Source: an uncultured bacterium
GTDB taxonomy: Bacteria > Krumholzibacteriota > Krumholzibacteriia > Krumholzibacteriales > Krumholzibacteriaceae
Direction: 5' to 3'
Length of the DNA stretch: 64,000 bases
Assembly: GCA_963846325.1 (NCBI GenBank)
Contig: CAWJVO010000009.1
Coordinates: 174,947-238,946, forward strand
A program made the translations under genes and the position numbers. Positions 52,425 through 63,690 of this stretch are shown piece after piece; position 1 is the stretch's first letter, and the number at the start of each line of letters is the position of its first letter. The notes under the pieces were generated by a model. That model did not search any database. It saw only the letters and a list, made by a program, of their open reading frames with translations, and had not been told where the DNA came from.

Positions 52425-53342
52425 ATGAAGAGCGCACCGGCAATTGCATTCTCGATTCTCTCGGCGTCGGCTCTCTGCGCGATCGCGCTCGGCGGATGCC
52501 TCGAGTCCAAACTCGCCAGCGCCTGGCCCGAACGCCCGATCTCGATCGACGGTAAGGCCCCCGAATGGGCCGGCCGCGAGGCGTACTACAGCGAAAATGA
52601 CGGATTCAAGATCGGCTTCTTCAACGACGCGGATTACCTGTACGTATACCTGGCGACCTGGAACCGGCAAAAACAATCCCAGATTCTCATGAACGGTCTC
52701 ACGATCTGGATCGACGCGACGGGCGGAAAGAAGAAAACATTCGGGATCAACTATCCCATGAAACGATCGATGCCCGATTCGTCGGGGATGTCACCCGGCA
52801 TGCCGGCCGGTCTGCGCCCCGGCGCCCGCCCGGGCGCCCCTGCGGACGATTCGCAGGAGAACCGGCAGGCGTTCCTCAGGTCCATGCTCGCGGAAGCGCG
52901 GGCCGATATGGCCGTTCTCGGCGCCGGCGGAGAACCGATCGCATCGATGCCCGCGGCGGATGACGGCGGAGGCGGCATCGCGGCGATGATCGATATCGCG
53001 AATCGGACCCTCATCTATGAAGTGCGTATACCGCTCGCGCCGTCCGACAGCCTGCCCTTCGCCGTCAACGCCGCTCCCGGAACGACGATCGGCGTCGGCT
53101 TCAAGGTCGGCAAATCGGAGATGCCCTCGATGAAATCGCCCGGAGAGCGTCCGCCCGGCGGTATGGAAGGTCCGGGGGGCGGCATGGGAGGCGGAGGCGG
53201 CATGGGCGGAGGGGGCGGTATGGGCGGCCCCGGAGGCGGCATGGGCCGTCCCTCCGGAGGACCGGGCGGAGGACTCTCCTCTCAAGCGTTCGAATACTGG
53301 GCGAAGGTCCGGCTCGCCGCGGCGCCTTCTACGCGCCCTTGA
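52425..53342 (+). CDS. Lipoprotein with Gly/Met-rich low-complexity segment
   Basis: Lipobox ALGGC; IDGKAPEW...NDADYLY...GLTIWID; GGGMGGGGGMG repeats. Confidence 0.72.
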   Translation: MKSAPAIAFSILSASALCAIALGGCLESKLASAWPERPISIDGKAPEWAGREAYYSENDGFKIGFFNDADYLYVYLATWNRQKQSQILMNGLTIWIDATGGKKKTFGINYPMKRSMPDSSGMSPGMPAGLRPGARPGAPADDSQENRQAFLRSMLAEARADMAVLGAGGEPIASMPAADDGGGGIAAMIDIANRTLIYEVRIPLAPSDSLPFAVNAAPGTTIGVGFKVGKSEMPSMKSPGERPPGGMEGPGGGMGGGGGMGGGGGMGGPGGGMGRPSGGPGGGLSSQAFEYWAKVRLAAAPSTRP

Positions 53343-53808
53343 CGAGTCGATCCGGCACCTGCACGGCGACGACCTCGCCGCGGACGCAGATCTCTCCGCG
53401 CGCCATGATCGTCGCGGTCACGACCACCTTGCGCCCCTTGATCTCCTTGACGCGCGCGCGCACCTCGAGGGGAACGCCCATCGGCGTCGGCAACAGATAG
53501 TCCACGTGCAGCGAGGCGGTGACGAAGCGGAAAGGCGGATCGGAACCCATCTCCCGCCCGGCGGCCCGATACGCAGCGGCGGACGCCGTGCCGGTGCCGT
53601 GGCAGTCGACGAGGGACGCGAGGAGTCCCCCGTACACGTAGCCGGGTATCGCGGTGTGATACGGCTTCGGCTCGAAGGTGCAGACAGACTCTTCCCCGTC
53701 CCAGAAGCTTCGAACGTGAAGTCCGTGTTCGTTGAGCCGGCCACAGCCGTAGCACTGGGCGAAATGATCGGGATAGTAGTCCTGAAACGCCTTCTCCTGC
53801 GGATTCAT
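53329..53808 (-). CDS. PaaI/hotdog-fold thioesterase
   Basis: CYGCG...NEHGL, YGGLLASLVDCH, VTASLHVDYL. Confidence 0.85.
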   Translation of the reverse strand: MNPQEKAFQDYYPDHFAQCYGCGRLNEHGLHVRSFWDGEESVCTFEPKPYHTAIPGYVYGGLLASLVDCHGTGTASAAAYRAAGREMGSDPPFRFVTASLHVDYLLPTPMGVPLEVRARVKEIKGRKVVVTATIMARGEICVRGEVVAVQVPDRLVKGA

Positions 53809-53838
53809 GATCTCTCCCTTGAAGATGTCATGCCGGAA

Positions 53839-61280: not shown

Positions 61281-61816
61281 TTGTATTTCTCCAGCGCCTT
61301 GCCGACCGTCAAATGATCGAGCCTGCTCACGAGCTCCCCGTCCACCATCATGACCGGCGCCTGGCCGCAGCAGCCGAGGCAGCGAACGGTCTCGAAGGAG
61401 AACCTCATATCGGCCGTCGTGCCTCCCGCGGCGATCTTGATCCCGCGCTCGATCGCGTCCTTCACGCGCATGGCGCCTCTCACGTGGCACGCCGTTCCCG
61501 TGCAGAGCGATATCTCGTGCCTGCCGCGCGGAACGAGCCTGAACGCCTTGTAGAACGTCGCGATCGCGTAGAGCCGCGTGAGCGGCACCTCAAGCTCCCG
61601 CGAGACGAGACGCAGATCCGCTTCGGGAAGATACTGGCGCAGCGCCTGCAGATCTTGAAGTATCGCGATGATCTGGGAGGCCATTCTCCCGTGCCGCTCG
61701 AGGATCCGCAGCACGGCGCCTTCGCCGGAAGCCCCTTCGGACGCGCTCGCCGGGGCTCCCGCGCGCCCTGGAAAAAGGACGTTTCGCATCGTACGCGCCG
61801 AATCCGCGTCGCTCAT
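61277..61816 (-). CDS. NuoE/HydC-like 2Fe-2S subunit
   Basis: ATFYKAF, CTGTACHVRG, CLGCCGQAP. Confidence 0.88.
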   Translation of the reverse strand: MSDADSARTMRNVLFPGRAGAPASASEGASGEGAVLRILERHGRMASQIIAILQDLQALRQYLPEADLRLVSRELEVPLTRLYAIATFYKAFRLVPRGRHEISLCTGTACHVRGAMRVKDAIERGIKIAAGGTTADMRFSFETVRCLGCCGQAPVMMVDGELVSRLDHLTVGKALEKYK

Positions 61817-63690
61817 CGCTCTATCGCCTCGAATCTGCACGCGTCGAAACACGCCCCGCACCGTATACATTTCGTCTCGTCTATCACGTGAATCTCTTTC
61901 GCCTTGCCCGCGATGCAGCTCGCGGGGCATACCTTGAAGCACGCGCGGCAGCCCGTGCAGCGCTCCGGAACGACTCTGAAACGGAGCAGCGGCTTGCAGA
62001 CACCCGCCGGGCATTTCTTCCTGTTTATATGCGCCTCGTACTCGTCCCTGAAGTAGCGTATCGTCGTGAGCACCGGATTCGGCGCCGATCCGCCGAGCGC
62101 GCAGAGGGAGGTCGCCGCGATCCCCTCCGAGATCTCCTCGAGGAGCGCGATATCTCCCCTCTTCCCCTTGCCTTCGACGATCCTGTTCAGAATTTCGAGA
62201 AGCGCGCGGAGCCCCTCCCTGCAGGGAAGACACTTGCCGCACGATTCGTCCTTGAGAAAATCGATGAAGTATTTCGCGACGTCCACCATGCAGGTGTCCT
62301 CGTCCATCACGATCATGCCGCCCGAGCCCATCATCGAGCCGGCGCCGGTCAGCGCGTCGAAGTCCACGGGCAAATCGAGGAGCGATTCCGGAAGGCATCC
62401 GCCCGAGGGACCGCCCGTCTGCACCGCCTTGAACTTCTTGCCCTTCGGCACGCCCCCGCCGATGTCGAAGATGATCTCGCGCAGCGTCGTTCCCATGGGA
62501 ACCTCGACGAGACCCGTGTTGTTGACCTTGCCGACGAGCGAAAATATCTTCGTTCCCTTGCTTCCGCCCCATGGACTGGCGCTCACGTCGCCGGTTCCGA
62601 TCTTCGTATACCAGGCGGGTCCGCCGAGAACGATCTTCGGCACGTTCGCCCACGTCTCGACGTTGTTCAACACGGTCGGCTGCTCCCAAAGCCCCTTCTC
62701 CACCGTATGGATGTACTTCGCGCGCGGCTCGCCGGGCTTGCCTTCGAGGGAAGCCATGAGCGCCGTGGATTCGCCGCAGACGAACGCGCCGCCGCCGCGG
62801 GAGAGGGAGATATCGAACGCGAAACCGCTCCCGAGAATATCGCCGCCGAGAAGCCCGCATTCGCGCGCCTGAGCGAGCGCCGTCGTGAGCGCCTCGACCG
62901 CGAGCGGGTACTCGTTCCTCACGTAGATGAAGCCTTCGTGCGCGCCGACCGCATACGCGCCGATGACGATTCCCTCGACGACGCTGTGAGGATTCCCCTC
63001 GCAGATGCTCCGGTCCATGAACGCGCCGGGGTCTCCCTCGTCGGCGTTGCAGATGACGAACCGCTTCCTCCCCTTGGCGTTCCGGGCCGTTTCCCATTTG
63101 ATTCCGGCCGGAAATCCCCCTCCGCCCCTTCCGCGAAGCCCCGACTTCTTGATCGTATCGATGACCGCGCGCGGCTTCCGGCTCTCGAGCACCCGACGCA
63201 GCGCCTCGTAGCCGTCGAGCGCGATGTAATCCCGTATATCAGCCGGGTCTATTCTCGAGTTGTCGCCGAGGATGAGCCTCATCTGCCGCCGGTAATAGGG
63301 AACCTCCTCCTCCAGCTCGACGCGCTTTCCCGTCGCGGGATCGAGATAGAGGAGACGCTCGACAATTTCCCCTTTCTTGATCGTCTTCGCGACGATCTCG
63401 GGAACGTCGAGCGGCTTCACCTGGGTGTAGAGGATCTTCCGGGGATGGATGACGACGAGCGCGCCCTTTTCGCAGAAACCGTGGCAGCCGGTCGCTTTGA
63501 CGTCGACGCGGCGCAGCCGTTCCCGCGCGATCTCGCGCTTGAACGCATCATAAACGGCGGCCGATTCGCAGGCGCGGCATCCCGTGTCGGTGCATACGCC
63601 GATCGTCATCCAGCCGGCCGGCCGCTCGCTGAGGATTTCCTTTCTGAATCTATCGAGGCTCTTGAACGAGCGAAGCTTGTTGAGTTTCAG
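61813..63690 (-). CDS. NuoF/HydB-like FMN/NADH subunit (BfuB-like), probable CTG start at 63690
   Basis: CTDTGC, GCHGFC, LRGRGGGGFP, CNADEGDPGAFMDR, GGPSGG, ESCGKCLPCREG, AHINRKKCPAGVC, C-terminal 2x[4Fe-4S]. The track start is ATG 63609. Confidence 0.92.
   Translation of the reverse strand: MKLNKLRSFKSLDRFRKEILSERPAGWMTIGVCTDTGCRACESAAVYDAFKREIARERLRRVDVKATGCHGFCEKGALVVIHPRKILYTQVKPLDVPEIVAKTIKKGEIVERLLYLDPATGKRVELEEEVPYYRRQMRLILGDNSRIDPADIRDYIALDGYEALRRVLESRKPRAVIDTIKKSGLRGRGGGGFPAGIKWETARNAKGRKRFVICNADEGDPGAFMDRSICEGNPHSVVEGIVIGAYAVGAHEGFIYVRNEYPLAVEALTTALAQARECGLLGGDILGSGFAFDISLSRGGGAFVCGESTALMASLEGKPGEPRAKYIHTVEKGLWEQPTVLNNVETWANVPKIVLGGPAWYTKIGTGDVSASPWGGSKGTKIFSLVGKVNNTGLVEVPMGTTLREIIFDIGGGVPKGKKFKAVQTGGPSGGCLPESLLDLPVDFDALTGAGSMMGSGGMIVMDEDTCMVDVAKYFIDFLKDESCGKCLPCREGLRALLEILNRIVEGKGKRGDIALLEEISEGIAATSLCALGGSAPNPVLTTIRYFRDEYEAHINRKKCPAGVCKPLLRFRVVPERCTGCRACFKVCPASCIAGKAKEIHVIDETKCIRCGACFDACRFEAIER

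Follow-up and report, generated by a model that had tools for sequence, protein, structure and literature searches.

We describe a tight row of eight genes, all on the minus strand at positions 53329–63690 of a 64,000-nucleotide stretch of DNA (the window) that forms part of contig CAWJVO010000009.1 (C9 in our numbering) of assembly GCA_963846325.1, from an uncultured anaerobic bacterium of sediment that belongs to the Krumholzibacteriota. The source genome comprises 2.76 Mb in 16 contigs and is 79.8% complete, and the closest public records to the window are metagenome-assembled genomes (MAGs) of Krumholzibacteriota. The row places genes for an electron-transfer module of the Bfu family beside genes for the alpha and beta subunits of a predicted flavin amine dehydrogenase, and this pairing, which recurs in other phyla and in natural fusion proteins, points to an enzyme type not yet characterised. 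The row and its leader are made up as follows, in the order of transcription.

63691–63856, minus strand: leader between the upstream PycB/OadA-like gene and the operon, AT-richer, with a TTGAC-type box, an AT-rich stretch and a GGAGG ribosome-binding site (read directly)
61813–63690, minus strand: BfuB (NuoF-like), 625 aa counted from CTG (Pfam and solved-structure match)
61277–61816, minus strand: BfuC (NuoE-like 2Fe-2S protein), 179 aa (Pfam 2Fe-2S_thioredx, PF01257, 8.3e-45)
60534–61280, minus strand: short BfuA (NuoG N-terminal type), 248 aa (Pfam Fer2_4 6.4e-19, Fer2, Fer4_7)
58301–60532, minus strand: GltD/NfnB-like domain, 4Fe-4S dicluster ferredoxin and MvhD-like 2Fe-2S domain in one protein of 743 aa (Pfam Fer4_20, Pyr_redox_2, Fer4_7, FlpD)
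57141–58304, minus strand: HdrD-like Fe-S protein, 387 aa (Pfam CCG 1.1e-20 in two stretches, Fer4_8)
55005–57126, minus strand: alpha, whole, in two frames in this assembly
55986–57126, minus strand: alpha, N part, with gamma-type 2Fe-2S domain (Fer2_4), FAD Rossmann fold and second dinucleotide fold (GGGNVG...E)
55980–55990, minus strand: alpha frameshift site, one extra base relative to all relatives
55005–55982, minus strand: alpha, C part, in the +1 frame, with the end of Pyr_redox_2, an insert of two 4Fe-4S ferredoxin clusters, a beta-rich domain and a BFD-type 2Fe-2S domain
53839–55008, minus strand: beta, DAO-family FAD dehydrogenase, 389 aa (Pfam DAO 1.9e-60)
53329–53808, minus strand: hotdog (4HBT) thioesterase-like gene, 30 nt after beta (Pfam 4HBT 1.2e-9)

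An earlier note on this DNA had described eight co-oriented genes that overlap or nearly abut, and the row is built in just this way: ATGA-type overlaps of four bases couple BfuB to BfuC, BfuC to BfuA, the 743-aa protein to the HdrD-like protein and alpha to beta, and the remaining junctions are gaps of 1, 14 and 30 nt. Its list of modules (NuoF-like, NuoE-like and short NuoG-like proteins, MvhD, an HdrD-like CCG protein, a DAO-type beta subunit and a hotdog protein) agrees with the Pfam matches. All genes of the row other than alpha are intact. A consensus scan found neither a promoter-like nor a terminator-like site on the minus strand inside the row, and did not flag the conserved upstream box of the leader, whose TTGAC box, AT-rich stretch and GGAGG are conserved in four related loci (L016, L005, L006 and L007). 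No ATG, GTG or TTG lies in frame at the true N-terminus of BfuB in the window or in L016; the CTG at 63690, with GGAGG 7–8 nt upstream (window positions 63688–63706), is conserved in the window and in all four of these relatives on inspection, and the 27 N-terminal residues of BfuB align with solved HydB. The gene thus appears to start at this conserved CTG codon. Hydrophobic 19-residue windows in the products fall only on Rossmann or cluster motifs, a crude indication that a complex of these proteins would be soluble.

In the definition of the Bfu family, BfuB combines a Nuo51 FMN domain, SLBB, a NuoF 4Fe-4S domain and a 4Fe-4S ferredoxin-type domain, BfuC is a NuoE-type 2Fe-2S protein, and BfuA, which is encoded with BfuB, has at least 2Fe-2S and 4Fe-4S ferredoxin-type domains (PMC9304861). 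The BfuB of the row carries PF01512, PF10531, PF10589 and Fer4 families (on 61813–63609), and BfuC and BfuA, encoded by genes that overlap by 4 bases, have the minimum domain content; by this domain definition the NuoF-, NuoE- and NuoG-like proteins are predicted to be a Bfu family core. In order along the protein, BfuB has an N-terminal thioredoxin-like 2Fe-2S domain, the FMN/NADH site, SLBB, the NuoF 4Fe-4S cluster and two C-terminal 4Fe-4S clusters (Pfam Complex1_51K 1.6e-44, NADH_4Fe-4S 8e-33, SLBB, Fer4). It matches the bifurcating hydrogenase subunit HydB (8A6T_B) at full length (E 8.7e-230, query residues 5–623), and also 7T2R_B, 7Q4V_B, NfnB (9N5U_B) and the Stn subunit 8OH5_B over its whole length. 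Short BfuA has one 2Fe-2S and two 4Fe-4S clusters and matches positions 5–98 of the NCBIfam model PRK12814, a BfuA-GltD fusion model of 657 aa. Besides NAD(H) and ferredoxin, which they bind, Bfu cores handle a third substrate by way of BfuA, and for many Bfu clades no such substrate has been assigned (PMC9304861).

The 743-aa protein had been read as a fusion of NfnB, HdrA, ferredoxin and MvhD. The NfnB-like, ferredoxin and MvhD parts are all present; the HdrA flavoprotein domain is absent by the Pfam and NCBIfam models, of which those for HdrA match only at residues 556–720, in the ferredoxin and MvhD part, and the flavin part is GltD/NfnB-like. At its C-terminal end it is similar to the same end of HdrA2 (2e-37). 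The stretch from residue 27 to about 500 aligns with NfnA (9N5U_A), StnC (8OH5_C) and 9BOV_A from residue ~102 of those proteins onwards, and BfuA and the GltD part align in order, as two adjacent genes, to NfnA, StnC and PRK12814, all with scores below the curated cut-offs. Short BfuA and the N-terminal ~500 residues of the 743-aa protein therefore look like a split NfnA/StnC, and for this reason we place the electron module closer to the Nfn/Stn type of Bfu enzyme than to Bam. In the HdrD-like protein a 4Fe-4S dicluster is combined with two CCG domains, and the translation shows the CCG as well as the CxxC signatures; none of the NCBIfam models that fit it best, TfrB, LdhH and GlpC, reaches its cut-off (70.5 bits against a cut-off of 278 for GlpC).

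The resemblance of the alpha/beta pair to the L-proline dehydrogenase of Thermococcales and to sarcosine oxidase, proposed before any search had been made, is borne out. The best solved relative of beta is the beta subunit of the Pyrococcus horikoshii L-proline dehydrogenase (1Y56_B; E 1.9e-51, residues 7–378), followed by dimethylglycine dehydrogenase, glycine oxidase and sarcosine oxidases, and the 24 best solved relatives are all amine oxidoreductases; we presume beta to be a candidate catalytic, amine-oxidising subunit. The N part of alpha matches Fer2_4 (3.3e-23) and Pyr_redox_2 (3.9e-25) in Pfam and, among solved proteins, SoxA (2GAG_A, 5.5e-19) and 1Y56_A (3e-14); the C part matches Fer2_BFD (3.3e-8) and Fer4 families. 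An AlphaFold model of an intact relative, the alpha of L005, has a pLDDT of 89.8 and a pTM of 0.89, and its best fold match is 1Y56_A (E 1.9e-30, target-normalised TM 0.81), then the alpha subunits of sarcosine oxidase. To the 1Y56_A-type fold alpha adds the N-terminal gamma-type 2Fe-2S domain, the insert with two 4Fe-4S clusters and the BFD-type 2Fe-2S domain, and its 16 cluster cysteines are invariant in 65 relatives. The pair has the features that mark heterooligomeric dye-linked amine dehydrogenases (PMC4575208), namely a DAO-type beta with an N-terminal ADP-binding motif and an alpha with an ADP-binding fold, a 2Fe-2S cluster of its own and the gamma-type 2Fe-2S domain. Alpha is thus predicted to carry FAD, a second nucleotide fold, two 2Fe-2S and two 4Fe-4S clusters.

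To see how far the pair is tied to electron modules elsewhere, we turn to related genomes. A search with the C part of alpha, at one genome per species, returned at least 563 relatives; the best 80 loci were kept and each was scored with the nine products of the window (shares among these best-scoring loci are not population frequencies). Twenty-six loci have less than 7 kb of upstream DNA and no match and cannot be judged, leaving 54, and 31 of these have Bfu, MvhD, GltD or HdrD genes beside alpha. Eight of the 31 have NuoFEG-like genes (in some only the G-like gene, the contig being cut) and the GltD protein, nearly all with HdrD, and 15 have a second arrangement, in which BfuCB is followed by a BfuA-ferredoxin-MvhD protein that adjoins alpha; three have GltD-MvhD and HdrD only, three, on short contigs, HdrD only, and two GltD only. 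In the second arrangement BfuC and BfuB occupy one open reading frame of 790–843 aa, and the next, of 540–658 aa, encodes BfuA, ferredoxin, MvhD and an extension of 150–270 aa that gave no match (best E 0.11, to a CCG region). GltD and HdrD are both absent there, yet BfuA-ferredoxin-MvhD adjoins alpha or is fused to it. On a quick IQ-TREE tree of 65 alpha sequences with SH-aLRT support (L064, with two stops, was left out), this arrangement is essentially one clade (14 sequences with it, five of unknown arrangement and one without), which spans Planctomycetota, Myxococcota, Fibrobacterota and Bacillota; because it forms essentially a single alpha clade over four phyla, alpha and its module travel together.

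Natural fusions provide what we consider the strongest evidence for the pairing of alpha-beta with an electron module. When the MvhD-to-alpha stretch of one protein (P0002) was searched against a collection of 5.8 billion proteins, 120 clusters at 90% identity were listed, and 86 of these proved in a BLAST check to be single proteins of 1165–1331 aa that combine the BfuA clusters and MvhD with the two halves of alpha. Their source names, where there are any, are mostly 'Bacillota bacterium' proteins or 'sarcosine oxidase subunit alpha'. One of the 80 loci (L018) carries an open reading frame of 1304 aa of this kind; in a further representative (P0018) alpha contains an inserted GltD-like domain, and five more are alpha-beta fusions. 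The earlier note had staked its proposal on linkage of the dehydrogenase pair to Bfu/Hdr genes in related genomes, and such linkage is what 31 of the 54 judgeable loci and the fusions display.

Within the Krumholzibacteriota clade the five-gene cassette lies exactly between alpha and a PycB/OadA-like gene (HMGL-like, PYC_OADA and biotinyl domains; 63857–64000 in the window and 804–2777 in L002), which is the constant upstream neighbour in the lineage. In a nested subclade (L009, L010 and L012–L015) this gene adjoins alpha directly, 6 nt before it, and the cassette looks to have been lost. The neighbour may reflect either a functional link, to pyruvate or oxaloacetate, or inherited synteny; further upstream of it lie genes for a PAS-HisKA kinase, a response regulator and a GAF kinase. 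In a set of 41 genomes (G000, the source genome, included; 34 belong to the same order and seven to others of the class), alpha was found in 31 of the 34 and in none of the seven. In 11 relatives and in G000 the same strand carries, 2.3–3.4 kb from alpha, an ortholog, full or partial, of the 743-aa protein. The hotdog gene, present and co-oriented as had been noted, is not a conserved member of the unit: it follows beta in three of the 80 loci, all close relatives (L003, L005 and L023), and other genes stand in its position in L004 and L007, so that it is probably not part of the complex. A convergent plus-strand gene (52425–53342) overlaps its end by 14 nt; the product, of 305 aa, has a signal-peptide-like start and a long Gly/Met/Pro-rich tail and gave no Pfam match.

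From the domain content and the linkage we consider it on balance probable that the row encodes one soluble, cytoplasmic flavin and Fe-S complex that couples amine/imine chemistry to NAD(H) and ferredoxin. Alpha and beta would interconvert amine and imine, because their kin are L-proline, D-hydroxyproline and opine dehydrogenases, hydrogen cyanide synthase and sarcosine oxidase. In the mechanism that we infer, whose path, stoichiometry and direction are all proposals, the DAO-type FAD of beta would oxidise the amine, and electrons would pass through the flavin and clusters of alpha to the 2Fe-2S cluster of MvhD, from there to short BfuA and on to BfuBC, with NAD(H) at the FMN and ferredoxin bound. 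Amine/imine couples are much more positive than NAD+/NADH, that of Δ1-pyrroline-5-carboxylate (P5C) and proline lying near −120 mV, and for this reason we propose that the amine would be oxidised with NAD+ only if reduced ferredoxin is oxidised at the same time:

amine + 2 Fd(red) + 2 NAD+ <-> imine + 2 Fd(ox) + 2 NADH

In reverse, imine reduction would drive NADH-dependent reduction of ferredoxin. The coupling would follow the logic of FngABC and of lactate dehydrogenase/Etf. MvhD feeds the bifurcating FAD of HdrA in Mvh-Hdr. Two subunits would be extras of the lineage: the GltD/NfnB-like FAD subunit might offer an NADP(H) site or a second bifurcating flavin, and the HdrD-like CCG subunit, whose role we likewise propose, might branch to a thiol/disulfide or another acceptor or merely transfer electrons, as has been proposed for GlpC (PMC13689815). 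A thiol substrate for this subunit is purely conjectural. Complex prediction with the intact L005 alpha and the ferredoxin and MvhD part (alignment residues 560–753), run without controls, gave a score of 0.00, which speaks neither for nor against binding.

A wider proposal, which we hold with rather less than even confidence, is that the row is the founding member of an amine-linked Bfu class with up to three candidate bifurcating flavin sites (the FMN/cluster site of BfuB, the NfnB-like FAD and an FngB/HdrA-like FAD in alpha), by which strict anaerobes would oxidise proline-type imino acids with NAD+ and reduced ferredoxin, or run the reverse, and that it would reveal the long-sought physiological electron partner of the 'dye-linked' L-proline, D-hydroxyproline and opine dehydrogenases.

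For the substrate our best guess, of low confidence, is a cyclic imino acid, for example proline; an opine, a D-amino acid, sarcosine or glycine would be possible too. In the order of the source organism ProC (P5CR_dimer) was found in none of 34 genomes, and in two of the 41 across the class set; ProA was over cut-off in none of the 41, a true ornithine cyclodeaminase occurs in three only (G023, G035 and G040), and a PutA-type Pro_dh was not found in the organism's own genome, which is 80% complete. This suggests proline auxotrophy or a route of an unknown kind in the class, and should the pair act on proline, no proline/P5C enzyme other than alpha-beta would have been found. The idea that alpha-beta replaces a missing P5C reductase was considered and is suggestive at most, given the equal absence of ProA and the five of seven genomes from other orders of the class that lack both ProC and alpha.

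Several observations weigh against coupling through a single complex or against its generality. Twenty-three of the 54 judgeable loci have no module genes within at least 7 kb upstream of alpha, and alpha-beta stands alone in genomes of Acidobacteriota, Ignavibacteria, Zixibacteria, Chloroflexota and the WOR-3 type. Other partners occur elsewhere: in an archaeal locus (L047) a PyrK/NfnA-like protein (DHODB_Fe-S_bind, 12123–12971) overlaps the end of beta, and in two of Acidobacteriota (L071 and L077) a 425-aa protein with two 4Fe-4S clusters follows beta (12193–13470 in L071). Because alpha-beta is found alone in those 23 loci and with other partners elsewhere, the Bfu module is optional for it. 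The second dinucleotide motif of alpha is invariant across all classes, Bfu-linked and stand-alone, and since this is so, alpha may have an NAD(H) or ATP site of its own and need no BfuB; loss of nucleotide binding in the Bfu-linked alphas, considered as a distinguishing mark, was rejected, as the invariant motif gives no discrimination. The NuoF-, NuoE- and NuoG-like proteins with the GltD part resemble a complete Nfn/Stn transhydrogenase by themselves. The amine couple lies near −100 to −200 mV. Known Bfu enzymes are described with a third substrate near −400 mV (PMC9304861), and because Bfu chains are thought to run near that potential and the amine couple is higher, a second bifurcating flavin would be needed, either the FAD of alpha, placed like that of HdrA or FngB, or the NfnB-like FAD. 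The sole neighbour that hints at a substrate is a thin hint, a P5C reductase gene (P5CR_dimer and F420_oxidored) directly after beta in four of the 80 loci, listed here with their coordinates.

L018, 12216–13061: P5C reductase after beta (Syntrophomonadaceae)
L034, 12246–13064: P5C reductase after beta (Syntrophomonadaceae)
L037, 12325–13131: P5C reductase after beta (Syntrophomonadaceae)
L070, 10933–11754: P5C reductase after beta (Pseudomonadota)

Finally, the alpha gene is broken in this assembly, and in G012, a genome of the same genus (96% complete, five contigs), alpha is also split in two frames (contig C1, 1105330–1106302). Taking the optional module and the alternative partners together, alpha-beta is thus a cassette, attached in different anaerobes to different NAD(P)H/ferredoxin modules.

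The same complex might instead do a reductive job, which we judge unlikely but deserving of consideration: an imine, for instance P5C or some other cyclic one, or a disulfide at the site of the HdrD-like protein would be the acceptor of high potential that enables NADH to reduce ferredoxin, in the manner of the classical flavin-based bifurcation of Hdr and Bcd/Etf; alternatively the complex would be a sink that re-oxidises NADH and reduced ferredoxin. The thioredoxin-reductase-like FAD fold of alpha, with its insert of two 4Fe-4S clusters and input from MvhD, is the arrangement of HdrA, and the partner modules (Bfu, NfnB-like, MvhD/HdrD-like and PyrK/NfnA-like) are all NAD(P)H/ferredoxin modules of anaerobes. 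FngABC readily runs in both directions (PMC13689815), and the order has the canonical P5C reductase in none of its 34 genomes and alpha in 31. However, with ProA over cut-off nowhere in the set there is no obvious source of P5C for biosynthesis, and the other-order genomes that lack both ProC and alpha make the pattern non-complementary.

We regard it as improbable, somewhat more so, that the row holds two separate co-transcribed enzymes with no common electron path, an Nfn/Stn-type Bfu transhydrogenase acting on NAD(H), NADP(H) and ferredoxin and a GlpABC-like dehydrogenase of the HdrD-like protein, alpha and beta. Such a division would fit the alignment of BfuA and residues 27 to ~500 of the 743-aa protein to NfnA, StnC and PRK12814 as a split form, the many genomes with alpha-beta and no Bfu genes, and the 14 loci in which an HdrD-like gene lies directly upstream of alpha, the trio of HdrD-like protein, flavoprotein and DAO protein paralleling GlpC, GlpB and GlpA (PMC13689815). 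It leaves the ferredoxin-MvhD extension of the GltD protein without a role, since a plain transhydrogenase has none for it, and it sits poorly with the GltD-like domain inserted in alpha in P0018 and with the second arrangement, where GltD and HdrD are missing and BfuA-ferredoxin-MvhD adjoins alpha or, in the 86 of 120 listed clusters, is fused to it.

That the operon is decaying here, a real frameshift in alpha leaving a complex that is non-functional or reduced to the Bfu/GltD/HdrD module, seems to us quite improbable. The frame from the ATG at 57126 loses its sense after ...IAVGLS and the protein resumes in the +1 frame from 55982; the extra base breaks alpha inside the Pyr_redox_2 fold, whose match on the N part stops at profile position 238 of 291. 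The earlier note had described a fused Fe-S/FAD alpha subunit, and the domain content is as it said, but there is no single open gene, the frame breaking near 55984/55985. Full-length relatives have 690–713 aa. All eight relatives compared at the DNA level read G-L-[S/T]-P-[V/I] in one frame, with six letters where the window has seven; the difference is not a homopolymer slip, and two substitutions lie beside the extra letter, which favours a genuine change. The split in G012 lies at a different place (residues ~64–74 of the alpha C part, with a TGA inside one match) and may be either an indel error or independent decay. Against decay, wherever both parts of alpha are present in the 80 related loci they share one frame, exactly one codon apart; 65 alpha sequences from these loci are all in one frame (the 66th, L064, had two stops); and the other genes of the row are intact. 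Near-identical contigs from all four of four public runs, from four studies, omit one letter at 55984 or 55985, differing from the window by one to four other letters over 162–396 bases. The share of the sampled words present is at most 52% in each of these runs, so the source sample is probably not among them. Because the relatives and the contigs of four studies carry an intact frame, the break is private to this assembly by this comparison, and it probably reflects an error of the assembly or else a mutation of very recent date; MAG consensus errors are common at strain-variable sites, which also counts against decay.

Least probable of all, and very much so, is that beta acts on a hydroxy acid or polyol phosphate (glycerol-3-phosphate (G3P), 2-hydroxyglutarate or lactate) within a relative of FngABC/GlpABC that is linked to Bfu: enzymes of this sort do occur in the DAO family, beta has weak NCBIfam matches to GlpA (1.2e-12) and L-2-hydroxyglutarate oxidase (5e-12), and the HdrD-like subunit resembles GlpC and LdhH, but the 24 best solved relatives of beta are amine enzymes, the best folds for alpha are the L-proline dehydrogenase and sarcosine oxidase alpha subunits, beta lacks the C-terminal BFD that is a hallmark of FngA/GlpA, and no row product matches DUF1667 in Pfam at E ≤ 0.001.

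Two further Bfu clusters were observed. One lies in the window at 14635–20349 on the minus strand, interleaved with 2-oxoacid:ferredoxin oxidoreductase (POR) genes:

19165–20349, minus strand: POR alpha
18239–19165, minus strand: POR beta/thiamine pyrophosphate (TPP) subunit
17753–18229, minus strand: BfuC
15913–17766, minus strand: BfuB, 60% identical to the BfuB of the amine operon
15188–15973, minus strand: BfuA
14635–15180, minus strand: POR gamma

This cluster matches the 'Por-Bfu' type, which PMC9304861 lists as predicted but uncharacterised. The other, found by tblastn only, is Nfn-like, with a NuoE/NuoF-like pair and then a GltD-like gene, and lies in the same source genome, at about 212233–216590 of contig C7 of G000.

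Bifurcating enzymes set the energy yield of anaerobes from poor substrates. The linkage of alpha-beta to Bfu modules, recurrent, spread over several phyla and sometimes fused, yields a testable hypothesis for two gaps, the third substrate of Bfu enzymes and the natural acceptor of the dye-linked enzymes, in which anaerobes of sediments and digesters would carry out ferredoxin-assisted amine oxidation or imine-driven ferredoxin reduction. If true, it would extend the logic of FngABC, reported for glycerol-3-phosphate in 2026, to nitrogen compounds. The three-polypeptide form of Bacillota (BfuCB, BfuA-ferredoxin-MvhD-alpha and beta) is a convenient target for expression and cryo-electron microscopy.

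Comparison with known systems defines what is particular to the row. With Nfn-Bfu (NfnABC; 9N5U/9N5V) and Stn (8OH5) it shares the BfuABC domain content and the full-length similarity of BfuB, and its short BfuA with the GltD-like part looks like a split NfnA/StnC; in contrast to these enzymes, it has BfuA and GltD as separate genes, an extra ferredoxin and MvhD on the GltD protein, and in addition the HdrD-like subunit and the amine dehydrogenase pair. The words 'proline', 'sarcosine', 'glycine' and 'MvhD' have no occurrence in the main text of PMC9304861, and no such third-substrate module is named there. The dye-linked L-proline dehydrogenase of archaea (PDH1, 1Y56), together with the enzymes that PMC4575208 describes as related to it (D-hydroxyproline dehydrogenase, the flavin opine dehydrogenase OdhABC, HcnABC and heterotetrameric sarcosine oxidase), has in common with the row a DAO-type beta, an alpha of ADP-binding fold, a BFD-type cysteine cluster and a gamma-type 2Fe-2S domain. 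In the row, however, the gamma-type domain is fused to the N-terminus of alpha, the insert with two 4Fe-4S clusters and the beta-rich domain are added, so that alphas of this type have ~700 aa against 484–493, and genes for an NAD(H)/ferredoxin module are attached. The heteromeric relatives have FAD in both alpha and beta, FMN between them and 2Fe-2S clusters; dyes are used in their assays, and they are called 'dye-linked', because the natural acceptor is unknown (PMC4575208).

FngABC consists of a DAO-type flavoprotein, a Pyr_redox_2 flavoprotein and a 4Fe-4S subunit, and it oxidises G3P only with NAD+ and reduced ferredoxin, reversibly (PMC13689815). The row shares this logic and the kinds of cofactor (a DAO-type flavoprotein, a Pyr_redox_2 flavoprotein of the 'cyanogenesis/opine oxidation/G3P' family, 2Fe-2S and 4Fe-4S clusters), and it may resemble GlpABC in that a CCG subunit, a candidate counterpart of GlpC, adjoins the alpha/beta pair. 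FngA and GlpA are defined by DAO and a BFD-like 2Fe-2S domain in one protein of ~500 aa (PMC13689815), whereas the BFD of the row is on alpha and beta, at 389 aa, is DAO only. As for the partner protein of FngC or GlpC type, the row has a protein with two CCG domains, which scores far below the GlpC cut-off as given above, and no product, alpha included, matches the DUF1667 domain of FngC in Pfam at E ≤ 0.001. Unlike FngABC, the best relatives of the row are amine and not G3P enzymes, and a whole Bfu module is attached.

The earlier note had framed the row as a Bam system in which the tungsten BamBC unit is replaced, a framing we abandon: the idea of NuoEFG-like, MvhD-like and HdrD-like subunits around a catalytic unit is common to the row and to the class II benzoyl-CoA reductase BamB-I, whose subunit roles we take from PMC9304861, but the module is nearer to the Nfn/Stn type, and the row is without BamB, BamC and the HdrA-type flavin domain of BamE, having a GltD/NfnB-like domain instead and a flavin amine dehydrogenase as the predicted catalytic part. 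No aldehyde-ferredoxin-oxidoreductase family, the mark of a tungsten BamB, is among the Pfam matches of the nine row products. With HdrA2B2C2 and Mvh-Hdr the row shares the ferredoxin and MvhD C-terminus of HdrA2 and both CCG signatures in the HdrD-like protein, but it lacks the FAD domain of HdrA, and no heterodisulfide-related genes were seen. A full-text literature search, whose coverage lies mostly in non-subscription journals, found no paper describing this gene combination, nor did look-ups of terms in PMC9304861 and PMC13689815 turn up such a description, and within that coverage the earlier statement that no complex of this composition has been characterised stands. We rate the row as a Bfu enzyme with a new type of catalytic module rather than as something categorically new.

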